64,000 nucleotides of DNA from an uncultured Gemmatimonadaceae bacterium (GTDB taxonomy: Bacteria; Gemmatimonadota; Gemmatimonadetes; Gemmatimonadales; Gemmatimonadaceae), in the NCBI GenBank assembly GCA_963761305.1, contig CAVXGK010000002.1, positions 3,040,001-3,104,000 on the forward strand. Reading direction: 5' to 3'. The notes under the pieces are model-generated. The model was not told where the DNA came from, ran no database searches, and worked only from the letters and a program-made list of their open reading frames with translations. The translations under genes were made by a program, and so were the position numbers. How positions within the stretch are numbered: the first letter of the stretch is position 1; every line of letters begins with the position of its first letter. Shown here in pieces: positions 1,210 through 45,689 of this stretch.

Positions 1210-3471
1210 TCAGAGCGCGACGTCGAGGGCACGACCGCTGAAGTCGATCGTCTTCACGATCGAAGAGCCGACAACTCTCACATTCACGCGGCGCGGATTC
1301 GGCGAGCGCATCCTGAAGCCGGGCGCGAGGCGGAGCGCGAGTCGTCTCGGTGCGTCGTGCCAACTCATGATCACGCGCATCGCGTCGCCGCGGCGGTAGT
1401 CGAACGAGTTGCCGTCGTCCTCGTACCACGTGGACTCGCCGTCAGCGCCGGGGTAAACGACCAGTGTCGTCGGTTCGGCGACCGGTTCGTCGGTGTACTG
1501 CCGGACAGGATCCATCGGGATCACCGATCCCGCACGCACGTAGAGCGGCAGCGTAGCCAAACCCACCGCGCGCTCGATCTCCGCGCCTCCCTCGACCGGC
1601 TCTTCTTTCCAGAAGTCGAACCACTTGCCCCGCGGTAGATAGACGCGGCGGCTCGTCGCGCCTTTCTCCACGACCGGTGCGACGAGGATGTCCCGGCCCC
1701 AGAGATATTCGTCGCCGCGGGCGACGGCCGACGCGTCATCCGCGTGATGCAACCAGAGCGCGCGCATGATCGGCATGCCCGTGTCGTGCGTCTCACGAAC
1801 AGCGGTGTACAGGTACGGCATCAGCCGATAGCGGAGCTCGAGGTATTGACGACAGATCGGCTCGACCTGCGTGTTGTGCAGCTCGGCTGGATCGGCCTTG
1901 AAGTTCTGCGTCTCTGGAGGACCACCGTCACCGCCGTCCCATCCCCATGGGAGATGCAGATGCCAGTTGCGGCCGTGCGAGCGAAACACGGGACAGAACG
2001 CCGCGAACTGGAACCAGCGTACGTACAGCTCTCCGGTGTACTCCGCGGTTGGAATGAACCCGCCGATGTCGGTGCCCCAATACGGAAGTCCCGTGAGACC
2101 CGTATTGATCGCGACGGGCACGTGCGTCTTGAGTGTCTCCCAGCGCGACTGCACGTCGCCCGACCAGATCAATCCGCCGAAGCGCTGCACGCCGGCCGAC
2201 GCGTTGCGATGGAGCGCGAACGGTCGCTGATTCGGGTGAAAGAGCTGCGTGCCTTCCCAGTACATGCGATGTCGATTCAGCTCCGACGGACCGTCGAAGC
2301 CATCGCCTTGATCCGGCCACCAGCCGTCGACGCCGTCGTCCATCACGGATTTGTGAAACGGCCAGTAGCACGACGCCTGGCGATCCGGCGGCCACTTGTT
2401 GTCCGCCGTTCGGCCACTCGGCAGCGGCGGCGCGGTGCACACATCCGCGACCGTTCCCGTGAGAAGCTTGCCCTCGATGACGACGTGCACGATCACCTTG
2501 AAGTGTTCGTCGTGCAATGCGGCAAGCTGCTTGCGCGGTTCCGGAAAGTTGACCGGGTGCCACGTGAATTCGCCGTTCCGCGTGTTCCAGCCCGACGGCG
2601 CGAACTCGGTGCCGAGGTAGATGAGCGCGTCGCACGGCAGCTTCTTCTCGCGCATCGTGCGCGCGATGCCGGCGATCTGCTCCGGTCCTTCGAGCGTGCG
2701 ATGCGATTGCTGATAGCCGAACGCCCAGCGCGGGGGCATCTCGGGCAATCCCGTGATGCGCGCGTATTCGCGCATGATCACCGCGGGATCCTTCGACGCG
2801 ACGACAAAGATGTCGAGCGGCAGCGACGCATCCTTCGGCGTGAACCTGCCGGAGGGTCCCGAGAAATCGAACTCGCCTGTCGGCTGGTGGATGAACATCG
2901 CCCACCCATCCGTGCCGACGAGCCATTGAATCGGCGCGCGCGTGCCGTGCGTCGACAGTCGGTAGCCGCCTTGGCCGATGATCATCCGATCGGTCGAGCC
3001 CTTGCGATCGAACTGCGGCCCGCCCTCGCCGAGTCCGAGCAATGGACCGTCGCCGAGGAGAAACGACATGCCGGGCGACGTCGCGTCGAGCACGAGTCGC
3101 TGCGCCAGTGCGCCGGCGCGCGTTTCGACGGTGAGGGTCGGTGGCGCGTCGCTGAACTTGATCGTGAGATCGCCGGCGCGAACACGGGTGAGTGCTGCCA
3201 AATCTCGCGCCCGTGTGAGCGGCTTGCCGAGTTTTTCCGCGAGGAGCTCACCGGTGAACGGCACAGGATCGGCGACGCCGTTTCGCAGCGGTTGAATGGT
3301 GATGCGCGCCGTCGATGCACTCAACGAGGCCACCGCGATCTCGACCGGCTGCCCCGCGACGACGATTTCCTTCGCGCTACCGCGAATGAAGGTGGGGCGG
3401 CCGAGGGCGAGCACGGCGCCGGCCGAGCCGAGTTGCTTCAGGGCATCACGACGCGAGACGTTGTCGCTCAT
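1210..3471 (-). CDS. Glycoside hydrolase family 31 (alpha-glucosidase/alpha-xylosidase-like), Tat-exported
   Basis: SRRDALK twin-arginine signal; GWWPDQGD nucleophile region, WSGDV, WGTDIGGF, ELYVRWFQF, RYRLMPYLY, C-terminal YEDDG. Confidence 0.9.
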   Translation of the reverse strand: MSDNVSRRDALKQLGSAGAVLALGRPTFIRGSAKEIVVAGQPVEIAVASLSASTARITIQPLRNGVADPVPFTGELLAEKLGKPLTRARDLAALTRVRAGDLTIKFSDAPPTLTVETRAGALAQRLVLDATSPGMSFLLGDGPLLGLGEGGPQFDRKGSTDRMIIGQGGYRLSTHGTRAPIQWLVGTDGWAMFIHQPTGEFDFSGPSGRFTPKDASLPLDIFVVASKDPAVIMREYARITGLPEMPPRWAFGYQQSHRTLEGPEQIAGIARTMREKKLPCDALIYLGTEFAPSGWNTRNGEFTWHPVNFPEPRKQLAALHDEHFKVIVHVVIEGKLLTGTVADVCTAPPLPSGRTADNKWPPDRQASCYWPFHKSVMDDGVDGWWPDQGDGFDGPSELNRHRMYWEGTQLFHPNQRPFALHRNASAGVQRFGGLIWSGDVQSRWETLKTHVPVAINTGLTGLPYWGTDIGGFIPTAEYTGELYVRWFQFAAFCPVFRSHGRNWHLHLPWGWDGGDGGPPETQNFKADPAELHNTQVEPICRQYLELRYRLMPYLYTAVRETHDTGMPIMRALWLHHADDASAVARGDEYLWGRDILVAPVVEKGATSRRVYLPRGKWFDFWKEEPVEGGAEIERAVGLATLPLYVRAGSVIPMDPVRQYTDEPVAEPTTLVVYPGADGESTWYEDDGNSFDYRRGDAMRVIMSWHDAPRRLALRLAPGFRMRSPNPRRVNVRVVGSSIVKTIDFSGRALDVAL

Positions 3472-6626: not shown

Positions 6627-7639
6627 CGCGCTGTCGAGTCCAGCGCGAGCAGACCGCGCAGCACAGACTGCGGGGCGAGAAACGCGGAGCCGTGGCGAAT
6701 GCCGCGCGGCGTCTTGAGCGAGTCGCGGAACTGCTCCCAATGCTCGAAGTCGTGCGAGCGCACCGCGCCGTAGTGACCGCGCGTGTACTCGTCGTAGTAG
6801 ACATACCACCAGTCGCCCGAGTGCATCACCGACGGACCTTCCGTGTCCTGGTCGGTGATCGCGGGCGATGCCGGTCCGTACGGCCCGGTCGCGTGCTTGC
6901 TCGACGCGATGCGGATGTAGCGGTGCAGCGGATAGAACGTCTCGTCCTTCATGACGAGGTAGTACGTGTCGCCGCGTTTGGCGATCGTGCCGTCGATGGC
7001 GCAGAAGCCGCCGTCGTAAAGCAGTTTGGCGGGCGAGTACGTCTTGAAGTCCTTCGTCGTCGTGAAGTAGAGGCGATGGTCCGCTCGGCCGCGCGACGTC
7101 TTCTGCGCGATCGAGTCCGTGGTCGGGAAACGCCCCGGGATCGACGACGCCCACACGATCACGAACTGTTTCGTCGCGTCGTCGTAGAAGAGATCCGGCG
7201 CCCACGTGTTCAGCGCATCGGGCTCATGCTCCATCACCGGCACGCGCGTCTGTTCCGACCAGTGGATCAGGTCGGGCGAGTGTGCGACGCCGATCGCGTG
7301 ATCGGTCCAGGCGACGGTCCACACGAGGTGGAACATGCCGTCCGGCCCGCGCAGAATGCTCGGATCACGCATCAGCGCGGCGGTCGTGTTCCACTCCTGC
7401 CAGCCGCGGCCAGCGCCGGTGATCGCCGGCGTGATGACCGCCTTGCCGCCGTTGAGTGGAAGCCACGTCACGCCGTCGCGGCTGTACGCGAGATGCACGC
7501 CGTCTTCACCGTTGCGCGTGAAGTACGAGAACAGAAACGCGCTCTGCTCCGGCGCGGGCCCCGGCGGGTGCGATGGGTGTCCGCACGCGACGAGCGCGAT
7601 CGTCGCGAGCGAGCGCCACGAGCCGAGCCGAGCTTTCAT
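6623..7639 (-). CDS. Glycoside hydrolase family 43-like five-bladed propeller, predicted lipoprotein
   Basis: ATG 7639 gives MKARLGSWRSLATIALVAC (lipobox-like); MRDPSI, WAPD, AIDGT, TEGP and RHGS motifs. The upstream part of the 605-aa ORF call is read-through in another gene's frame. Confidence 0.85.
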   Translation of the reverse strand: MKARLGSWRSLATIALVACGHPSHPPGPAPEQSAFLFSYFTRNGEDGVHLAYSRDGVTWLPLNGGKAVITPAITGAGRGWQEWNTTAALMRDPSILRGPDGMFHLVWTVAWTDHAIGVAHSPDLIHWSEQTRVPVMEHEPDALNTWAPDLFYDDATKQFVIVWASSIPGRFPTTDSIAQKTSRGRADHRLYFTTTKDFKTYSPAKLLYDGGFCAIDGTIAKRGDTYYLVMKDETFYPLHRYIRIASSKHATGPYGPASPAITDQDTEGPSVMHSGDWWYVYYDEYTRGHYGAVRSHDFEHWEQFRDSLKTPRGIRHGSAFLAPQSVLRGLLALDSTAR

Positions 7640-7641
7640 GT

Positions 7642-8976
7642 CTACGATTTCTTCTTCATCAAGAGCGTGAGCGGCGTGGTCGCCGTCGGCCCGATGTCCA
7701 CCGGGATGTCCAGCTCTTCGTAGCCTTGCTTCGTGATGTGCAGTAGAGAGCCGCCCTCGGGAAGGAAGACGAGACTCACCGTGCCCGTCGCCGTGGTGCT
7801 GACGTACGTTCCCGTCTTGGCGTCGGCGACTCGCGCGCTGTCGACCGGCTCGCCGGTGTCCTGGTCGTAAATCCCGAGGAGACGGTAACGATACGAGGGA
7901 AGCGCCGCCGCCGAGTCGTGGCCGACGGCAACCGAGTCGTGGAACGCGACGGTCGAGTCGTGACGCGGCGAGGCGTCGATGGCGACGGGCGTCGTCGTCT
8001 GAACGCCGGAAAGCGTCGCGCGAATCCCCGGCACTCCGTCGGAAGGCGATCGCACGTACGACGTTTGCCCCGGCTCGTAGACGACGCCCTCCTTGAGCAC
8101 GATGAAGAGCGCGTTGTTGCTCCCGACCTTGCCGACCGAGTTGTCCCAATCGTCGAGATACTTGATCTGCTCGATATGCTCGGGCCGAATCTCGCAGAGC
8201 ACCTGTAGCGTCCCCGCCGACAATCCCGACAGTGCGCCGCGATGTCCCGCCTGGCATGCCGGGTCGGTCGTGATGGTGAGGATGCGCCGTCCGTTCACCC
8301 ACGCGCTGGTTCGCGAGAACGCGGACGGCGCGCCGGACGATCGCGTGGTGCGCGGACAGCCGCCCGCGTTCGTGTTGGAGATCGGGCAGGCGCGGGCCGC
8401 GGTGCGCACGCTCGCCGGGACGCCGCCCCATGGATTGCAAATTCGGCCGCAGACCATGTCCGGCTTGAGCTTTCTCAGAATGTCCGACGCGTCGATCAGC
8501 TCGTCCGCGTGTTTGGCGATCTCGTCGGCATCGATGAAGTAGCTCTTGCGCTTGAGATCTTCCTGCGCGGTCACCGTCACCGGCGCGAGCGATTGGGTCG
8601 TGCGATGCATGACGACGTCGAATGACAGGCGCCCCGACTTGCCGCGAAAGAACTGGTCGGAACGGTTGTAGCCGATCTTGCGCACGACCAGCTGATAGTC
8701 TCCTTGCGGCTGCTCCACCGTCAGCGAGACGTGGCCGCTCGGATCGGTGGTGCCGCTCGCTTTCGACTCACTCAGGCCGACGAGAACCGCCGCCTCCGCG
8801 CCGTCGACGGCGATCCCCGCGCTGTCGATGACCCGCACGCTCACGACCAGCGGCGGAATCGTGGGTGTTGCCGTCGCCTGTGCGGCGCCGCTCACCGACG
8901 TCAGGCTCGTGGCGACCGCCGCGGCCAGCGTCAACGCGGAAAGGGTCCGGCAATTTCTCGCTGCCCGAACCGACAT
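7642..8976 (-). CDS. Secreted protein with carboxypeptidase-regulatory-like domains flanking a TonB-plug-like, Cys-rich core
   Basis: Signal peptide; 'VRVIDSAG...GTTDPSG...YQLVVRKIGY' and 'IYDQDTGEPV...HITKQGY' domains; central 'FIDADEI...EIRPEHIEQIKYL...ALFIVLK'. Confidence 0.65.
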   Translation of the reverse strand: MSVRAARNCRTLSALTLAAAVATSLTSVSGAAQATATPTIPPLVVSVRVIDSAGIAVDGAEAAVLVGLSESKASGTTDPSGHVSLTVEQPQGDYQLVVRKIGYNRSDQFFRGKSGRLSFDVVMHRTTQSLAPVTVTAQEDLKRKSYFIDADEIAKHADELIDASDILRKLKPDMVCGRICNPWGGVPASVRTAARACPISNTNAGGCPRTTRSSGAPSAFSRTSAWVNGRRILTITTDPACQAGHRGALSGLSAGTLQVLCEIRPEHIEQIKYLDDWDNSVGKVGSNNALFIVLKEGVVYEPGQTSYVRSPSDGVPGIRATLSGVQTTTPVAIDASPRHDSTVAFHDSVAVGHDSAAALPSYRYRLLGIYDQDTGEPVDSARVADAKTGTYVSTTATGTVSLVFLPEGGSLLHITKQGYEELDIPVDIGPTATTPLTLLMKKKS

Positions 8977-12212: not shown

Positions 12213-13268
12213 ATGAACCGCCCGCGTTTTCGTCCCGAAATTGGCGTTCTGGTGCTGGCCACGCTGCTCGCCTCCTGCAGCGAGACGAAGACCGACAAGT
12301 CGAGCGCATCGCCGCAAGCTGGGGGGGGCGCGTCGGCCGCGGGCGGCGGCAAGACGTTCACCATCGCCATGATCGCCAAGAGCTCGACCAACCCGGTGTT
12401 TCTATCGGGACGCCAGGGCGCCGAGGCTGCTGCTGCCGAGCTGACGAAGGCGAACGGGGTGAACGTGAAGATCGACTGGCTCACCCCGCCCGACGAGGAC
12501 CCCACGCTCCAGGCGCAGCGCATCGGCGAGGCGGTGAACGCCGGCGCGAACGCGATTCTTCTCTCGGCGAGCGACGCCGGAAAGCTCGTCGGTGCGGTAG
12601 ACGAAGCCGTCGCGCGCGGCGTGCCGGTGATGACGTTCGACAGCGACGTCGCCGGCTCCAAGCGCTTTTCGTTCTACGGTGGGGACGACGCGTTGATGGG
12701 CACGCAGGTGATGCAGGAGCTGGCGAAGCAGATGGGCGACAAAGGCAAGATCGCGATTCTCGCCGGCAACCAGAACGCGCCCAATCTCCAGAAGCGCGTC
12801 GAGGGGGTGAAGACGGAAGCGGCGAAGCATCCCGGCATCACGATCCTCAACACGTTCTACCACGCCGAGACGCCGCAGGACGCCGCCGCTGAGGTGACGC
12901 GCGCCCAGAACGCATATCCCGACATTCAGGGCTGGGCGATGATCGGCGGCTGGGCACTCTTCACGCCGGCGCTCCTCACTGACCTCGATCCAAAGAAGGT
13001 GAAGATCGTGTCCGTCGACGCGCTGCCGGTGGAGTTGCCGTACGTGGACAAGGGACTCGCGCCCGTGCTGTTCGCGCAGCCGACGTACCTCTGGGGCTAC
13101 GTCTCGGTGAAGACGATCTTCGACCACGTGTATCTGCACAAGGATGTGCCGGCGCACGTGCAGATGGATCTCGTGCGCGTGTCGAAGGAGAACCTCGGGC
13201 AGTGGGCGCGTCAGTTGAAGGACTGGGGATTCAGCGACGTAGATCCGAAGTTCCTGTCGATGAAATAG
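12213..13268 (+). CDS. Sugar ABC-type substrate-binding lipoprotein (RbsB-like, Peripla_BP)
   Basis: Lipobox LLASC; IAMIAKSSTNPVF, PVMTFDSD, ILAGNQNAPNLQKR, VSVDAL. Confidence 0.88.
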   Translation: MNRPRFRPEIGVLVLATLLASCSETKTDKSSASPQAGGGASAAGGGKTFTIAMIAKSSTNPVFLSGRQGAEAAAAELTKANGVNVKIDWLTPPDEDPTLQAQRIGEAVNAGANAILLSASDAGKLVGAVDEAVARGVPVMTFDSDVAGSKRFSFYGGDDALMGTQVMQELAKQMGDKGKIAILAGNQNAPNLQKRVEGVKTEAAKHPGITILNTFYHAETPQDAAAEVTRAQNAYPDIQGWAMIGGWALFTPALLTDLDPKKVKIVSVDALPVELPYVDKGLAPVLFAQPTYLWGYVSVKTIFDHVYLHKDVPAHVQMDLVRVSKENLGQWARQLKDWGFSDVDPKFLSMK

Positions 13269-13306
13269 GCCCTGACGACGGGAATTTTATCCGACACTGT
13301 AACAAT

Positions 13307-13330
13307 CTTCGAGAATCGTTGTTTTCGAAG
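13307..13330. terminator. Possible hairpin downstream of the sugar-binding protein gene
   Basis: cttcgagaa...ttttcgaag imperfect inverted repeat in an AT-rich stretch about 40 bp after the stop. Confidence 0.3.
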
Positions 13331-13574
13331 TAGCAAATCGCGATCGGCTCCCACTTATATAGTAGGGGGGTCGTCATCCAAATTTTGGTCTGGATCGGCG
13401 ACGCCACGCGGGAGTGAACCGGAACTGGCACAAGAGTGCTCCGGATCACCGAACGAGAGCCCGTGTCCGCTCGACGCCTGCCGGGATTAACAACTCGACC
13501 CGACGGCGTCAGACGCACTACCCCCAAATCGCTGATCGAAAGAGCCGGGAGACTTTTCGTCGGCGCCGGGCGAT

Positions 13575-13891
13575 CAGTCTCGATCGACGAACGACCAGTC
13601 TCGATCGACGAACAACGAGTACGCGACAGCAAATCGAGTGTGTGCGATCTCGGACTCGTGAAGCGTGACGATCGGATGCCGATGCAATGTATCCAATTGA
13701 TCATTCTGGAAAACCGACCGGCGGTGCGCGATCGCCGGTTCGCGTTGCGCGACGGAGAGAACGCGGTAGTCGAGCGCCGGGCGGAGAAATCGAAGCTGGC
13801 GAACGACGAATCGTCGTCGCCGGCTGTCGATGCGCGATGTCCGGCTCGCCATGCACGATGTCCGACCGGCCATGTGCGATCGCCGATCGAC
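13575..13891. repeat. Degenerate 21-bp tandem repeat array
   Basis: Near-identical 21-mers at 13575/13596; TRYGCGA-like cores at 13620, 13641, 13662, 13725, 13746, 13767 and (one-base shift) 13831, 13852, 13873; three similar units at 13829-13891. Confidence 0.7.
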
Positions 13892-14002
13892 GACGCGGAG
13901 CGTGAAGACGCGGATACCGGACTTTGGGGACATGAAACCGAACATCCGACGAAGGATGTCGGCTGACATAGACGATCGCCGCCGCGGAGCGATCGCGCAG
14001 TA

Positions 14003-14036
14003 CCCGGCGCGCACTCGGTGCGCCGGGAATCTTTTT
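14003..14036 (+). promoter_or_regulatory. GC hairpin plus T-tract immediately upstream of the RBS of the 14048 gene (terminator/attenuator-like)
   Basis: cccggcgcgcac-tcg-gtgcgccggg followed by aatcttttt, then aaggag and ATG 14048. Confidence 0.45.
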
Positions 14037-14047
14037 CAAGGAGTCAT

Positions 14048-14830
14048 ATGGAAAACAGGCAAGGCGACGTACTCGAATCAATTCGAGCAGTACAGAACTT
14101 CCTCGACGCGCACGCCGATCGACTCGGGGACGTGAACAAGACGGGCGTGCGACAGCAGCTCGATGAGGTGGTAACGCAGCTCACGGGACACGTCACGTCT
14201 CAGAACGACCACTCGCTGGCCGCACTGGGTGCGACGCGGAAGCAACGTGCGCTGCGGCGCATCCTGGTCAACGAGCACATGCGACCCATCGCGCGCATCG
14301 CGAGCGCGGATCTGCCACCCACGCCCGAGGTGCAGCCACTTACGATGCCGGCGGGACGGCCGACGGTCGCTGTTCTGATTGGCGCGGCACGGGGTATGGC
14401 CGCGGCGGCGGGACGGTTTGCCACGGTCTTCACCGGCGCGGGTTTGCCGGCGGACTTCGTGGCGCAACTCACCACGGCTACGGACGCGCTCGAGGCGGCA
14501 CGCGACCAGCAGACCTTGACGCGATCATCTCGTGCCGGGTCGACGGACGTTCTGGCCGGAACCCTGCAGCGAGGCCGCCGAATCATCCGCGTTCTGGACT
14601 CGCTGGTGGCGAACGCGCTCAAGGATGACCCCGAGTTGTTGACGGCGTGGAAATCCGCGAAGCGAATTCGGCACATCGGGCGACCCGCGGGGATCGCCGG
14701 AGTGACGTTGCCGGCGACGCCACGGACGACGGCTCCGACGACCACTCCGCCGAAGGCCCAGACCGCCCCGACGGCACTGGCGGCGCCGACCGGTCCGGCT
14801 GTCAGTCGTGAGGCGCCGGTTGTAGCGTAG
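14048..14830 (+). CDS. Hypothetical all-helical protein with Pro/Thr/Ala-rich C-terminal tail
   Basis: Strong RBS aaggag before ATG 14048; 260 aa, amphipathic helices, 'LPADFVAQL', 'DDPELLTAWKSAKRI', low-complexity tail; no recognisable catalytic motif. Confidence 0.75.
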   Translation: MENRQGDVLESIRAVQNFLDAHADRLGDVNKTGVRQQLDEVVTQLTGHVTSQNDHSLAALGATRKQRALRRILVNEHMRPIARIASADLPPTPEVQPLTMPAGRPTVAVLIGAARGMAAAAGRFATVFTGAGLPADFVAQLTTATDALEAARDQQTLTRSSRAGSTDVLAGTLQRGRRIIRVLDSLVANALKDDPELLTAWKSAKRIRHIGRPAGIAGVTLPATPRTTAPTTTPPKAQTAPTALAAPTGPAVSREAPVVA

Positions 14831-14840
14831 TCAACCGATT

Positions 14841-14877
14841 GAACGGTCGAGTCAGTCCGCGGCTGGCTCGACCCTTC
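14841..14877. terminator. Stem-loop between convergent genes (likely bidirectional terminator)
   Basis: gaacggtcgagtcag / ctggctcgacccttc inverted repeat between stops at 14830 and 14887. Confidence 0.6.
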
Positions 14878-20693: not shown

Positions 20694-20711
20694 CGCCGTA
20701 GGGAGCGTCGA

Positions 20712-20915
20712 CTACCCGATCGCGTGACCGACGATCATCGCGATGGAGAGCCATAGCCCGGCGATGAAGATCGCCGCCGCGACGTTTCCTTTCTTCAGCT
20801 CCGTCGGGAGATCGACTTCGTGCAAGAGCTTGTCGATGATGCGAAAGCTCACATACATCAGCACCACGCCGCATACGGCGTAGAGCAGGTTCAGCGCAAA
20901 GATCCAGCCCTGCAC
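20712..20915 (-). CDS. DUF350-family small membrane protein
   Basis: 67 aa, two TM helices, 'IDKLLHEVDLPTELKKGNVAAAI' matches the DUF350 pattern. Confidence 0.75.
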   Translation of the reverse strand: MQGWIFALNLLYAVCGVVLMYVSFRIIDKLLHEVDLPTELKKGNVAAAIFIAGLWLSIAMIVGHAIG

Positions 20916-20966
20916 GGATCGCCTCGTCGAGTGTCGTTGTGCCCGTTCGGCGCCACACTCAGACGA

Positions 20967-21006
20967 GGGGCTGCCCAGAGCGATGTCATTCGCTTGGGCA
21001 AGCCCC
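20967..21006. terminator. Stem-loop downstream of the tricorn gene
   Basis: ggggctgcccagagcga / tcgcttgggcaagcccc near-perfect inverted repeat. Confidence 0.45.
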
Positions 21007-21061
21007 GGGCCGCATCAGGAGCGCGTCGTCGAGGCGACGCTCATCGGACCCGCCGCCGGCC

Positions 21062-24000
21062 TCAGGCCGGCGGCTTCACGCGCGCGCCCCACGTCGGCGG
21101 CGGCGGTTCCTTCGTGGCGCGTTGCACCGGATGATCCTTGAGCTGCTGCAGCGCGACGGCGACCGCCCGCTCGAGCTGCGGATCGTGTCCGGCGATCACT
21201 TCCTTGGGCGTGTTCTCGATCGGCGATGTCGGGCGGCGTCCCTTCGTTCTCGACCGCCCACTTCTCGTCGCGGGCGAAGAAGCCGCCGCGCGGCGCGATC
21301 GCCGAACCGCCGTCGATGAACGGCGGCGTGTCGGCCGTGTGGACGAGACCGCCCCACGTCCGTTCACCGACCAGCGTGCCAATCTTGCGATAGTGGAACA
21401 TGTACGGCATCAGGTCGCCGCCCGAGCCGGCCATTTCGTTGATCACCATCACCTTCGGTCCCCAGATCCCGGCCGCGGGACTCGTGAACGGCATGCGGTC
21501 GCCGGCGACGTTGTTGAAGTAGCCGTCGAAGTCGCGCTGGAGCACGTCGATGATGTAGTCCGCCGCCTGGCCGCCGCTGTTGTACCGCTCGTCGATGATC
21601 GCGCCCTTGCGATCCTGTTGCGAGAAGTAGTAGCGGTTGAAGTACTGATAGCCCGGCCCGCGCGGTGCTCGGCAGATACACGTACGCCAACTGGCCGTGC
21701 GACAGCGAGTCGACGAGACGACGGCTGTCTTCGACCCACGCGCGTGAGCGCAGCGTCTGCTCGTTGGCGATCGGCACGACCGTCACGTGCCGCGCGCCGT
21801 CGACCGTCGGCGTGGCGTTGACGACGAGCGCCGTCTGTCGATTCGCCGTACCGTCGAGCAGCCGGTAGATGTTGTCGGGCGCCTTCAGATCCTGCCCGTT
21901 GATCGACAGGACGTAGTCGCCGACGCGCACGTCGACGCCCGGCGCGGCGAGCGGCGCCCGCAGATCCGGATTCCACTCCTCGTCGTCGTAGATGCGCGTG
22001 ATCTTGTAGCGGCCGTTCTCAATCGCGAAGTCCGCGCCGAGCAGTCCGGCCGGCGCGCCGTTCTGCACCTCCGGCATGTCGCCGCCGCGCACGAACGAGT
22101 GGCCGATCGCGATCTCGGCGCCCATCTGGTCGATCAGATAATTCAAATCGGCGCGGTGGTTCACGTACGGCAGGAGCGCGCCGTACATCTCTTTCATCTT
22201 CGGCCAGTCGGCGCCGTGCTCGTTGGTGACGTAGAGGTAGTCGCGCTGGTTTCGCCACGCCTCGTCGAAGATCTGTTTGAACTCGAGCTTGGGATCGATG
22301 TAGGCGCGCAAATCGTCGGTCACGCGACCCTGCCCGGCCTGCGGCGGCGCACGATCCGCGTCGACGACGAAGATCTGTGGGCCGTTGCCTCCTGCCGCTC
22401 CGCCACGTCCACCGCGACCGCCCCCGCCGCCGCCCGCGCGATACACGAGCTTGTGGCCGTCGAGGCTCACGTCATAGCCCGCGACGCCGGTCGCGAATGG
22501 GACGTCGCGCCGGTCGCGCAGTGTGTAGCGATGAAGCGTCGCGCCGCCGCCCGCGCCCGCCGCACCGCGACCACCACCGCCGCCGGCTTCGACGTAGAAC
22601 ACGGTGCCCGCCGCGCCCGCGTGCAGGTTGCTGTACTGCCGCTCCGGAATTCCCGGGACGGCGAGGATACGATGCGAGAGCCCGTCGAAATCGATCGTCA
22701 CGGTCGGCATCGCGGCACGCGGCGCGCGTGGCGCCGCCTGCTCGCCACCTGCGGCGCTGTCGGCACCGGCCGCGCCTCCACCGCCACCCCGACCACCGCG
22801 GCCGCCGCCGCCACCACCAAAGGCCGGCGCGGCGGGCGTTCCATTCTCCTCATCGCTTTCCGGGAGGAACGGCGACGGATCGCTCTTGCGCAGAATCGCG
22901 GCGTAGAGACCGAACGTTTCCGTGTGGTCGGCGTTCGACATGTCGAGCCACTGCGAGCGCAGACCGAAATCGGTCGACGCGATGAACCAGAGATACTTGC
23001 CGCTCGCGTCCCACGCCGGCGACTCCACGTCGGCGAGTCCATCGGTTACCTGCTTCGACGCGCCCGTCTCGACGTTCACCACTTCGATCGCCTTGTACAG
23101 AGTATTCAGATGCTTGGCATAGGCGATCCACTTTCCGTCCGGCGACCACACCGGATCCATCGTGCGCGTCGGCACCATCCACGGATCGTTGCCGACGATC
23201 TTCGCCGTGCCCGCCGCCACGTCCACCACCCACAGATGCAGGTTCGTGTCGTGGAACAGGATATGTTTTCCGTCGGGCGACCACGACGCGGTATAGAAGT
23301 GGCCCGTCGTGGGAATCTTGATCTCGCGCGGCGTCGTCAGGCCGTCCTGGTCGACGATGTACAGCTCGTACTCGCCCGACTTGTCGCTGAAGTAGGAGAG
23401 CTGCTTGCCGTCCGGCGACCAGGCCGGCTCACGCTCGGCCGAGCCGCTCGAGTTCGTGATGTCGCGAACGTCGCCCTTCTCGGCGGGAATGGTGAAGATC
23501 TCGCCGCGCGCTTCGACGGCGATCCGCTTGCCCGTCGGCGAGAGCGCCATGTTCGTCATGTTGGCGGTGACGTCCTTCCACTGCGCCATCATCCACGGAA
23601 AGTCACCCGTCGCTGTGATGTTGACGACGTGCTCCTGGCCGCTCTTCGGGTCGAGCAGGTGAATGTTGCCTGCCTGCTCGAAGACGACGGCGCTGCCGTC
23701 GCTGGCCGCATCGAGCGTCTTCACGTCGTAGTCCGTGAAGTGCGTCACCTGCGTGAGCTTCTTCGAGGCGCGATCGAAGCTCCATACGTTGGAGACGCCG
23801 TCACGATCGGAGGCGAAGTCCACCACGCTGTTGTTGACCCACACCGGATCCATGTTCTTCGACTCCGGAACCGATGGCGCCGAGAAGTGCGCCGATCCAC
23901 GAGGCGATCCCGCCTGGGCGACGACGAGATCGGTCGTCACGTTCGGTGTCGAATCGAGATCGAACGTCTTGAGGTCGACGATCCAGATCGGGCGATTCTG

Positions 24001-36070: not shown

Positions 36071-36750
36071 TTCTCTTGCGGACTCACACGGGTGGTCATG
36101 ACGTCATAGCTCACGCCGAGCTTCTCGAGCGCGGCTGGCGGACAGCCGTCGTAGTTGGGGTTGAACACGTTGCCGATGTATTGGACGTCTTTCCAACCCA
36201 TGGCGCTCGAGTAGAACCCGGAGGCCGTCATGTCGCGGAGGCGGTTGAAGAACGAGACGCCGTACGACATGCCGGGCGGCGCTTTCTGCGGATACGCGAT
36301 GTCGTCGAGAATCTGACGGCGCTGCGGGTCGCTCGCGTCGACGAAGTACTTGTCGAACCGCCGAAGCGATTCCGTGTCGAGCCACGCCAGACCGCCGCGC
36401 ATCGCGACCTGCGTCGCAGGATTGGCGTCCTTCTCGGCCAGCAGATAGTCCATGTACTCGGGGACTTTCGCATCGGTCGCGCTGCCGGAGATTTCGTCGC
36501 GCGGAATTATATAGTCCACGAGCACGTGGACGGTCTTCCACTCGTGCGCCGTGAAGAAGCGCGGTCCCGCTTGCGCGACCGGCGCAACGGCCTGCGACGT
36601 CGCCACCTGTTCGAGCGCGGTGGCGGGACTGAGGGCCGCGGCCACCGGCACGGCGCCGAGGACCTGCAGCATTCGGCGGCGGGAAATCGCCGCGTCGGCT
36701 GACGTCGCGCCGGCGCCTTTCGGCTCGCGATCGTCATTCATGGTACTCAT
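36067..36750 (-). CDS. Gluconate 2-dehydrogenase subunit 3-family protein (Tat partner of GMC flavoprotein)
   Basis: SRRRML Tat motif; FFTAHEW, IIPRD, SATDAKV, GFYSSAMG, YIGN; overlaps the GMC stop. Confidence 0.88.
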   Translation of the reverse strand: MSTMNDDREPKGAGATSADAAISRRRMLQVLGAVPVAAALSPATALEQVATSQAVAPVAQAGPRFFTAHEWKTVHVLVDYIIPRDEISGSATDAKVPEYMDYLLAEKDANPATQVAMRGGLAWLDTESLRRFDKYFVDASDPQRRQILDDIAYPQKAPPGMSYGVSFFNRLRDMTASGFYSSAMGWKDVQYIGNVFNPNYDGCPPAALEKLGVSYDVMTTRVSPQEK

Positions 36751-44198: not shown

Positions 44199-45689
44199 CT
44201 ACGGCACCGTCCGCGCGCGCTTCTTCATCAGCGCCTCGATCTCGGCGATCTCGCGCGGTGCGGTGCTCAGTCGCTCGAGACCGGTGTCCGTGATCAGGTA
44301 GTCGTCTTCGATCCGGACGCCGGTACCTTCGTAGCGCGCGACCACCGGCTTCACCTTCGCGATGAACGCGCGGTTCTTCGGCGTATCGGGAAGCGCGTCA
44401 AGCATGCGCGCGCTCACGTAGATCCCCGGCTCGATGGTGAACACATCACCGGGCCGATAAACCCGATCGCCGTACGAGAACTGCGCGGGGTCGTGAACGG
44501 CGAGACCGAGGCCGTGGCTGATGCCATGGATCATCCACAGCATTCCCTGCCTGCACATCGCCGGCGTACGCTCGCAGTTGGCTTGCCACGGCGGATCGAA
44601 CGTCGCGTCCTCGCTCTCGATCAAGCCGAGCTTCGCGAGCCCGCGCGAGCGAACGGCGACGGACGAGTCCTGCGCCACTGCGGCCGATTTGCCGGGAACC
44701 GCGTTCCGTTCCGCCGCCGCCTGCGCGTCGCGCACGAGTTGGTACATCGCGCGCTGGTCCGCCGTGTACGTGCCGCTCACCGGAATCGTCCGCGTGATGT
44801 CGGCGGCGTAGCCTTCGTATTCCGTCGCCGCGTCGATGACGACCACGTCGCCCGGTTTCGTTTCGCCGCGGTCTTTCATGTAATGCAACTGCGTTCCGTT
44901 GAGCCCCGACCCGACGATCGATCCGTACGCCGGCCGCGCTCCCCCGAGGCGCATGAACGTGTACTCGAGCGCGGCTTGAAGCTCGTACTCGTGCGCCGGC
45001 ATCGGCGCGGTCATGGCCGCGCGATGGCCTTCCGAGCTGATCTCCGCCGCCTTTCTCAGCAGCGCGATCTCCGCCGCGCTCTTCTTGGCGCGCAGCTGAT
45101 CCACGAGCGGCGACGCATCCTTCGCGACGAGTCCGGGATGTCGCGACACGAGTCCGCGCACGAACGACCGCCCTCGCGTGAGCGAGTCGGCGCGCGAGAA
45201 GTCGGCGTCCTCGAAATCATCCAGCGTGAAGAGCGGCAGGCCGCTGGCCGCCAACGAGTCGGTCACCGCGCCGACCGCCGAGAATGAGCGGGCGCGAACC
45301 TGCTGCGTGCGGACGACGGCGGCCGAATCGGGCCGCCATCCATAGTAGAACGCCGAGCGCGGATCGGCCGGCGTGAGAAACAGCGTCGTCGTTCCGACGC
45401 CGTGGCGCACGACCATCACCATCGCCGCGTCGGCTTCGTCGAAATTGGTGAGGTAGTGAAACGCCGGCAGTTGATGGAACGGCCCGAAGTCGTTGATCGG
45501 CGTCCGTTCCCCGAACGCGACCACGAAGCCGCTGTCGATCTTCTTCGCCAACGCCTCCCGCCGCGCCGCGAACTCACGCTCGGTGATCTGCGCCCGCGCC
45601 ACCGGCGCCGCGCCGAGCACGAGCAACGAGAGCAACGAGAGCAACGAGAGCAACGAGAACATCGCCAACGAATGCGTTCGGAACGTCAT
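44199..45689 (-). CDS. Xaa-Pro aminopeptidase (M24B), secreted
   Basis: FHYLTN, LHY, YAADITRT, HGISHGLGLAVHD, TIEPGIY, GVRIEDD; RBS gagaggga before ATG 45689. Confidence 0.9.
   Translation of the reverse strand: MTFRTHSLAMFSLLSLLSLLSLLVLGAAPVARAQITEREFAARREALAKKIDSGFVVAFGERTPINDFGPFHQLPAFHYLTNFDEADAAMVMVVRHGVGTTTLFLTPADPRSAFYYGWRPDSAAVVRTQQVRARSFSAVGAVTDSLAASGLPLFTLDDFEDADFSRADSLTRGRSFVRGLVSRHPGLVAKDASPLVDQLRAKKSAAEIALLRKAAEISSEGHRAAMTAPMPAHEYELQAALEYTFMRLGGARPAYGSIVGSGLNGTQLHYMKDRGETKPGDVVVIDAATEYEGYAADITRTIPVSGTYTADQRAMYQLVRDAQAAAERNAVPGKSAAVAQDSSVAVRSRGLAKLGLIESEDATFDPPWQANCERTPAMCRQGMLWMIHGISHGLGLAVHDPAQFSYGDRVYRPGDVFTIEPGIYVSARMLDALPDTPKNRAFIAKVKPVVARYEGTGVRIEDDYLITDTGLERLSTAPREIAEIEALMKKRARTVP
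45621..45656. repeat. Perfect 9-bp tandem repeat (gagcaacga)x4 in a signal-peptide coding region
   Basis: Four exact copies; on the minus strand they encode SLL-SLL-SLL-SLL. Confidence 0.9.

Follow-up and report, generated by a model that had tools for sequence, protein, structure and literature searches.

What is a run of 21-base repeats doing between a promoter-like motif and the start codon of a gene whose product belongs to a family without a name? The question is raised by a locus in a 64,000-nucleotide stretch of DNA from an uncultured Gemmatimonadaceae bacterium (assembly GCA_963761305.1, contig CAVXGK010000002.1, positions 3,040,001 to 3,104,000 of the forward strand). We call this whole stretch the window; coordinates are positions in it unless a contig or locus handle precedes them. 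A periplasmic sugar-binding protein gene (Peripla_BP_4, E 2.5e-45, Pfam) has its stop at 13268, and the next convincing start, ATG 14048, opens the gene of a 260-aa helical protein. The well-supported answer is that the 779 nt between them belong to a module, conserved and duplicating, in which a 21-nt repeat leader is paired with a very large protein family that has no name. What the leader does can be answered with less confidence.

The gap divides into five: an AT-rich start, a stretch without repeats, array 1, an AT-rich spacer, and arrays 2 and 3. The features of the locus are:

13270..14843 (ends approximate), + strand: the whole inserted module, ~1.57 kb; lacking from this site in 7 related genomes, present there in a ~93%-identical soil-metagenome contig
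13322..13372, + strand: promoter-like motif inside the AT-rich stretch (nhmmer, 33.2 bits)
13373..13563, + strand: first part of the leader, non-repetitive; no repeat family detected
13564..13680, + strand: array 1, unit CGACCAGTCTCGATCGACGAA, decaying toward 13680; period 21 by Tandem Repeats Finder (TRF), repeat families D2, D5 and D6 at 21-nt spacing
13681..13713, + strand: AT-rich spacer between the arrays, G+C 33%
13714..13900, + strand: arrays 2 and 3 with TGCGCGA-like cores and a one-base register slip between 13714 and 13799; repeat family D1, TRF
13938..14027, + strand: three hairpins, the last followed by a T-run at 14030-14036; fold z -2.56, terminator-like call
14030..14043, + strand: weak pairing predicted between the T-run and the ribosome-binding site AAGGAG at 14038-14043 (minimum free energy structure)
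14048..14830, + strand: gene of a basic 260-aa protein, an elongated bundle of helices plus a disordered Pro/Thr/Ala tail; G+C by codon position 0.71/0.56/0.76
14845..14873, no strand assigned: hairpin common to the convergent alpha-galactosidase gene, probably ancestral intergenic sequence; aligns with the spacer of the empty site

The repeat leader of the window

A sequence-only reading of the locus had described an AT-rich start of the gap, a degenerate array with 21-bp periodicity, and a gap by far the longest in the window. The start is indeed AT-rich (48% G+C at 13269-13372, 66% in the genome). A crude open reading frame (ORF) caller gave no larger true gap, its sole larger one (6627-8092) being occupied by a minus-strand gene; rivals of ~670 nt at 20694-21363 and 36071-36746, however, leave 'by far' unsupported. 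The third-position G+C (GC3) of ORFs within the gap is 0.52-0.71, compared with 0.76-0.87 in three flanking genes, and none of these ORFs looks coding.

The periodicity was borne out by autocorrelation of 13400-14000. Identity at lag 21 was 0.422 versus 0.267 in 500 dinucleotide shuffles (z 8.3), and the largest z in any shuffle at any lag from 1 to 70 was 4.31. At the neighbouring lags 20 and 22, z was -1.2 and -0.8, and at lag 42 it was 4.3. TRF called period 21 at 13571-13620 (2.4 copies, 89%) and at 13830-13880 (2.4 copies, 80%). The one-base slip that had been read within the array is confirmed as well, because the spacings of the degenerate 39-nt repeat family D1 (84, 85, 21, 21, 21) include 85. 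A 7-base sub-period is weak in the window (z 3.9) and is the top lag in just 7/24 family arrays, so it is not a general trait.

Between the arrays and the gene, three hairpins had been noted (13938-13962, 13971-13996 and 14003-14027). The region folds better than chance, with a minimum free energy (MFE) of -50.7 compared with -41.15 +/- 3.73 in shuffles (z -2.56), and 2/200 shuffles were equally good. Hairpin 14003-14027 has 10 pairs and is followed by AATCTTTTTC; the terminator scan by itself was not beyond chance (1 found versus 1.4 expected). In the MFE structure, 14030-14034 of the T-run pair with 14038-14042 of the ribosome-binding site, and a UCUCC/GGAGA pairing like that of the window can be read by eye in alignments of other module copies. 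The ribosome-binding site is strong, as had been said (AAGGAG at 14038-14043, followed by ATG 14048 and a stop at 14828-14830). Among 39 homologue loci (12 of this genome, 10 of the genus and 17 of other assemblies), 33 have a similar site directly before the start. In one leader type represented by 8 copies, two conserved hairpins at the 3' end comprise 21 pairs, one of which has a change on both sides and several of which are kept via G-U.

The protein family, its leaders and their spread

The predicted product had been described as an all-helical protein with a Pro/Thr/Ala tail, and the AlphaFold2 model agrees (37-row alignment; mean predicted local distance difference test score 86.1). Five helices (2-29, 33-88, 107-130, 137-190 and 195-205) make up an elongated, all-helical bundle over residues 2-205; residues 211-260 are a low-confidence, disordered Pro/Thr/Ala tail. 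The core of the window protein has an isoelectric point (pI) of 10.6. Basicity extends across the family: over the first 210 residues the median pI is 10.4 and the median net charge +10, and 33/35 members lie above pI 9, compared with a median of 7.9 and 36% above 9 in a sample of 400 proteins of the genome. The long helices of the model have 54-56 residues (~80 Å), which would roughly equal the length of 21 bp or of a stretched 21 nt.

No match to the 260-aa protein was found in Pfam, NCBIfam or PADLOC at the thresholds used. A PDB sequence profile gave a best E of 0.045 only, PHROG rows were weak (E 0.012 to 0.18), and Foldseek returned no match at E <= 0.001 among PDB and viral models. The best Z of a wide structural search (9.8) is in a range reached by long helical bundles via shape alone. 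From the ESM Atlas came clusters without names and, at 0.85, a weak lead to DUF6261. Longer forms of the family carry no added domain, and a separate search for longer forms found none.

The protein is no orphan, as it had been called. Its family comprises 4,944 clusters (50% identity) at E <= 0.001 and 916 at <= 1e-30, none of them named; the 52 homologues in a clustered collection are all unnamed, too. The genome itself holds 12 paralogues by tblastn and 15 by hidden Markov model. Seventeen homologue loci carry a record title: 15 are assigned to Gemmatimonadaceae, Gemmatimonadales or Gemmatimonadetes, 1 to 'bacterium' and 1 to Candidatus Eisenbacteria. Family matches were present in 16/41 related genomes (12/24 other members of the genus, 3/8 of one sister family and 0/8 of the other), with up to 13 matches per genome.

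The repeats accompany the family. All 12 paralogues have an upstream stretch of 600-900 nt with tandem arrays of period 21, the unit sequences of which differ. Lag-21 identity of at least 0.5 over 210 nt within 1 kb upstream was reached by 8/12 paralogues versus 41/3,554 called genes; the binomial probability of this difference (1.5e-13) treats the paralogues as more independent than they are, since they share ancestry. Upstream of the 39 homologues, TRF reported 66 arrays, 38 with period 21, 9 with period 42 and 1 with period 63. At least one array of these three periods occurred in 23/39 loci and none in 16, and the check set by the sequence-only reading, on 7/21-bp arrays in the flanks of homologues, is positive.

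Period 21 is moreover the commonest tandem period of the genome (166/1,044 arrays, 13.3 kb), compared with 14 to 28 arrays each for periods 19, 20, 22 and 23. On the two large contigs, 41 regions exceeded the lag-21 threshold versus 0-3 at lags 19, 20, 22 and 23. These regions lie directly before a family gene (9/41), before a family remnant (4/41), behind a promoter-like motif with no family gene ('leader-only', 5/41) or inside called ORFs (2/41). The other 21/41 are unclassified, and one of them overlaps a motif copy at its end.

Some of these regions deserve description in their own right. The four family remnants are frameshifted and keep the first ~100 residues (C2:2348214-2348552, C2:1501086-1501394, C2:2818587-2818924 and C1:852613-852945), and a strong 21-nt array begins ~380 nt upstream of each. 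These ORFs are of a 113-aa type; their N-terminal 58 residues are 42-48% identical to the A-type paralogue, and the match goes on in other frames. The leader-only loci L023, L024, L031 and L046 (C1:192xxx, C1:494xxx, C2:148xxx and C2:2024xxx) consist of motif, arrays and 3' hairpins followed by unrelated genes; one leader-only copy ends at a bidirectional terminator hairpin. Very long 21-nt arrays with neither motif nor family gene occur at C2:3200036-3200516 (~23 copies), between two convergent genes and 17 nt past a stop codon, and at C1:1390252-1390666 (~20 copies). A second satellite of the genome has period 8 (157 tandem arrays) or 16 (89 arrays), with units GGACCGGT, GGACGGGT and GGTGGACA and a median of 4.9 copies. 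An example lies at ~3080-3150 of locus L059, just beyond the 3' end of module copy B1; the TRF rows of the window contain no array of period 8 or 16.

The AT-rich start of the gap contains a motif of ~50 nt with the consensus TGGTAnCAAAnCGC..N..TAAGTAGGGGGG (window copy 13322-13372, 33.2 bits). With nhmmer, 36 copies were found in the genome, arranged as 14 divergent pairs and 8 singles, and the AGTAG and G-run columns of the motif alignment (A4) are invariant. A copy lies 467-799 nt upstream of 8/12 paralogues and, in five sister genomes, often 575-890 nt upstream of family genes. Since genes begin 10-132 nt after other copies, we read the motif as a putative promoter with its start site at the G-rich 3' end. 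On the other side of the pairs, gene starts follow at +12, +53 and +63 (sigma-like), +64 (PrpD-family) and +132 (PadR). A divergent gene with sigma-70 region 4 stands behind the same motif in 5/12 paralogue loci; the window has none. Two such genes, L027:2912-3445(-) and L041:2939-3499(-), match region 4 alone and seemingly lack region 2 as called; either their start codons were called too late or they encode truncated sigma-like proteins. A motif model built from sequence alone had 38 hits in the genome and 3-28 in its five closest relatives, all of which have family genes. It had none in the other 35 genomes searched (0/25 family-negative and 0/10 other family-positive), and in these last 10 the motif may have diverged.

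How did the module come to lie between two sugar genes? Seven related genomes have 33-63 nt between the convergent genes of the binding protein and the alpha-galactosidase, and no helical gene there; in five of these genomes the binding proteins are 90-91% identical. Six further loci were uninformative, the second gene lying beyond the 1.5-kb flank. Because the sugar genes are adjacent without the module in these seven genomes, the comparison indicates that ~1.57 kb here (about 13270 to about 14843) is an insertion, as the sequence-only reading had supposed when it spoke of a self-contained unit in a sugar cluster. It had also given the unit a terminator of its own. A hairpin does exist at 14845-14873; it has no T-run, was not called by the scan and is probably older than the insertion, because it aligns with the intergenic-spacer hairpin of the relatives. 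The inverted-repeat list contains no terminal repeats, and comparison of the junctions with the empty sites by eye gave at most ACGG(G) on both sides.

Another module type has been duplicated together with its leader. Leader and gene are repeated as a block of 1,942 nt with 97.4% identity, which starts shortly before the motif pair and ends at the gene's terminator hairpin. The window's copy has a counterpart in a soil-metagenome contig of 1,805 nt (~93% identical), which crosses the junction from the binding-protein gene, covers the leader and reaches into the helical gene. It differs by eight small indels at 13272-13520 and 14002, and none falls within 13521-14001. The 1-2 nt indels of this related strain at 13364-13520 lie in the non-repetitive part of the leader, and two more are at 13272 and 13309. 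A metagenome scan for close relatives with flanks gave 2 loci, one with just 20 nt upstream.

What the repeats may do

Composition gives the arrays a direction. Sense-strand GC skew is negative in 11/12 paralogue leaders (-0.07 to -0.32; background standard deviation 0.06), and the sense units contain C 0.38, G 0.28, A 0.20 and T 0.14. Folding of the sense arrays equals that of shuffles (mean z -0.05; 2/34 at <= 0.05), and in 30/34 arrays the antisense strand would fold better. The arrays also follow the presumed start site and precede the ribosome-binding site, and the hairpins kept at the 3' end of one leader type likewise speak for RNA. The sequence-only reading had suggested that the protein may bind or polymerise on the array, as DNA or as a transcribed RNA; indirect evidence comes from the constantly basic core, from the joint duplication of array and gene and from a period that persists while unit sequences change. 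Of these two versions, the strand-biased, unstructured family arrays favour RNA over duplex DNA ('two helical turns'). No Rfam 15 family reaches its gathering score in the window, and 16 other leader loci gave tRNAs alone. A weak full-length hit to P17, a Pseudomonas small RNA, at 13548-13825 (+) scored 24 bits (gathering score 45; E 0.001-0.002) and contained large deletions, and we regard it as a chance match on G+C-rich repeats.

We tentatively propose that the leader is transcribed but not translated and forms a periodic single-stranded platform, most likely for the basic helical protein encoded behind it. Among the readings considered, this one explains the largest number of observations. 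The repeat-bearing stretch of roughly 680 nt would probably be the untranslated 5' leader of a transcript that starts from the promoter-like motif. Transcription would begin at the 3' end of the motif, a position suggested by the 10-132 nt between other motif copies and gene starts. An ECF-type (extracytoplasmic function) sigma factor would drive it, since the motif also heads divergent ECF-type sigma genes in one subfamily. The arrays would stay open as RNA, and a protein would occupy them in a 21-nt register; the candidate is the basic helical one, whose ~80 Å helices would roughly match one unit. Occupied arrays would in turn exert feedback at the terminal hairpins, on read-through or on translation; in the window these hairpins look like a terminator, and their T-run is predicted to pair with the ribosome-binding site. 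Leader-only copies would be decoys, or decayed modules. A bolder form of the proposal, which we regard as doubtful when taken as a whole, is a self-duplicating nucleoprotein module. In it, repeat RNA (or DNA) from directly upstream of the gene would be the scaffold on which the basic helical bundle assembles with a constant 21-nucleotide register. Paralogues would each evolve a repeat 'track' of their own, and tracks without a gene would be decoys; the module would be spread over thousands of Gemmatimonadota family members and have no described counterpart.

Several observations weigh against a single-stranded platform. About half of the arrays of the genome (21/41) adjoin neither motif nor family gene, and leader-only copies exist. 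Proteins that are 86% identical stand behind different array sequences, with just short cores such as GATTCAC in common. A terminator-like hairpin with a T-rich tail is present in just 9/39 loci. The leader of the window is itself not C-rich (skew +0.04, G 0.32, C 0.29), and its fold as a whole shows no strand preference (z -2.2 sense, -2.4 antisense). A constant period of exactly 21 is also predicted by phasing on double-stranded DNA, and several units contain palindromes (TCGATCGA, GTCCGGAC). Fold searches with the protein model gave no recognisable nucleic-acid-binding fold, and no listed public RNA run holds the stretch of the window.

Phasing on duplex DNA is accordingly one alternative to weigh, and the confidences we attach to these readings are not mutually exclusive. 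The arrays would then be binding sites two helical turns apart, for the helical protein or another factor, comparable to iterons, centromere repeats or operator arrays; lying between promoter and gene, they would form a roadblock or a silencer. The exact period despite differing unit sequences, the lack of enrichment at lags 20 and 22, the palindromic unit cores, the basic protein and the related strain without an indel over 13521-14001 all suit this reading, to which we give a minor chance. A strand-asymmetric composition (11/12 leaders, 30/34 arrays) has no reason on a duplex, however, and the one-base slip breaks strict helical phasing. Nor does the model contain a winged helix or other DNA-binding fold, and at least 41 arrays on two large contigs argue against a replicon origin. 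A smallish chance likewise goes to the arrays being functionless: a slippage-prone satellite that expands in long leaders and spacers and rides along on gene duplication. Unit sequences do turn over fast, even between 86%-identical paralogues; 21/41 arrays lack a partner gene or motif, 16/39 homologue loci lack a TRF array of period 21, 42 or 63, and the period-8 satellite is also abundant (157 arrays). Slippage does not readily explain why one period dominates (166 arrays versus 14 to 28 each for periods 19, 20, 22 and 23) or why the link to the gene family holds across Gemmatimonadaceae and one Eisenbacteria record, and the orientation-specific composition points to selection.

Other readings keep the transcript and change the role of the repeats or of the protein. 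The termination factor Rho loads on C-rich unstructured RNA, and the leader could be a Rho-type attenuator, so that the gene would be expressed just where conditions keep termination from occurring; the repeats would be a mere by-product of how such sequence arises, and the protein would have an unrelated, stress-related job. We consider this unlikely, although C exceeds G and sense-strand structure is low in most copies, the leaders are 600-900 nt long and untranslated, and five paralogues stand beside ECF-type sigma genes and others beside PadR, DUF305/DUF4142, CopD and efflux genes. Such an attenuator leaves both the fixed 21-nt period and the joint travel of leader and gene unexplained, and the window leader is not C-rich. 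The sigma genes raise the further, distinctly improbable idea that the helical protein is an anti-sigma-like partner of the divergent ECF-type sigma factors expressed from the same motif pair. The same motif heads both genes, and 5/12 paralogue loci have a divergent sigma-70 region 4 gene; 7/12, the window among them, have no sigma gene, and the protein matches no anti-sigma domain family (Pfam). Translation of the arrays as heptad repeats, whether they would lengthen the helical protein at its N terminus or encode a repeat protein of their own, is largely refuted and has very little left in its favour. It can point to a period divisible by three, to a 176-aa frame (13436-13966) that spans the arrays here without a stop, and to 11/23 loci in which a frame runs open from array into gene. 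In 12/23 loci, however, an in-frame stop lies between array and start (here 84 nt before the ATG), and a strong ribosome-binding site lies right before the conserved start in 33/39. The slip, a GC3 of 0.63 (0.76-0.87 in genes) and the missing codon-phase signal point the same way: the G+C spread among codon phases in arrays (0.277) is near that of shuffles (0.235; genes 0.379), and substitutions in 28 arrays showed no consistent bias by codon phase. The sequence-only reading had likewise argued from the slip against a maintained heptad-repeat protein. In two database proteins (P0045 and P0057), the N-terminal 7-aa repeat extensions are 21-nt arrays read through by gene callers.

The neighbourhoods of the modules offer some hints. 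At L041, L057, L058, L059 and L056, paralogues have CopD, DUF305/DUF4142, outer-membrane efflux protein and MacB/FtsX permease genes as neighbours, and PadR regulators adjoin B-type copies. These envelope- and metal-related neighbours hint at a stress regulon. In a single case a module copy lies beside a tRNA gene (L056:3109-3181, ~820 nt upstream of the paralogue C1:277630). Elsewhere in the window, 45621-45658 is a perfect 9-nt tandem repeat of GAGCAACGA (4.2 copies).

Known systems and the meaning of the module

Plasmid iterons are direct repeats of 17-22 bp, spaced about two helical turns apart and bound by a Rep initiator, as in R6K, pPS10 and RK2. The present arrays share with them head-to-tail direct repeats of ~21 bp (lag 21 z 8.3, TRF period 21) beside the gene of a possible binder and next to an AT-rich stretch. 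Unlike iterons, they form 41 lag-21 regions on two megabase contigs rather than one or few per replicon, and they are strand-biased in composition and placed between a promoter-like motif and a ribosome-binding site. The window protein is all helical, with no match to Rep or winged-helix families (Pfam, NCBIfam, PHROG). The omega repressor of plasmid pSM19035, a ribbon-helix-helix protein, binds contiguous 7-bp operator repeats cooperatively. Our arrays resemble its operators in being contiguous short repeats, and in the window they have a weak 7-base sub-period (z 3.9); 7 bases are the top lag in just 7/24 family arrays, however, and the protein here is a long helical bundle.

Two RNA systems come closer in other respects. 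Sponge RNAs such as CsrB and RsmZ present GGA in hairpin loops in many repeated units, each of which binds one protein copy. Many short repeated units are also found here, and the leader-only copies could be decoys; in contrast, the sense units are G-poor (28% G), fold like shuffles and match no Rfam family at gathering score. Enterobacterial genes can be regulated by Rho-sensitive, rut-rich 5' leaders that are long, untranslated, C-rich and weakly structured. With C above G and low structure over about 80 nt or more, 11/12 paralogue leaders are similar, the window's leader being the exception; to our knowledge, rut-rich leaders are not tandem arrays with a fixed period.

As a mobile unit, the module recalls miniature inverted-repeat transposable elements and other non-autonomous, passenger-carrying elements, being a discrete block of 1.6-1.9 kb found at new sites and duplicated at 97% identity. 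It differs from them in having no transposase and no terminal inverted repeats, and the 4-5 nt duplication (ACGG) seen by eye is doubtful. The sole ORF with a coding signature is that of the helical protein, which sets the module apart from an insertion sequence or transposon; the statement that no insertion sequence is recognisable therefore stands, no transposase or terminal repeats having been found. The same is true of its not being CRISPR-like: units follow each other head to tail without spacers, and called ORFs near the 11 scanned paralogue loci contain no Cas family (Pfam). The locus does not have the defining feature set of iterons plus Rep, CRISPR, insertion sequences, Csr-type sponges or any Rfam family. 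At the level of abstracts, the literature on intergenic tandem repeats of Gemmatimonadetes, on 21-bp or 21-nt repeats and on Gemmatimonas promoters and start sites yielded no description of such a module.

The Gemmatimonadota, a phylum abundant in soil, have seen very little experimental genetics. In them, one unnamed protein family is tied to the commonest tandem period of the genome and to a 50-base promoter-like motif that ECF-type sigma genes also have. Should the arrays be a register-keeping track, they would represent a new principle of cis-linked recognition between protein and nucleic acid and a source of programmable repeat-binding parts. Even if they are an attenuator or a satellite, the pairing accounts for a large part of the long intergenic gaps in these genomes as well as the false heptad-repeat extensions added by gene callers, and it provides a defined regulon for transcript mapping.

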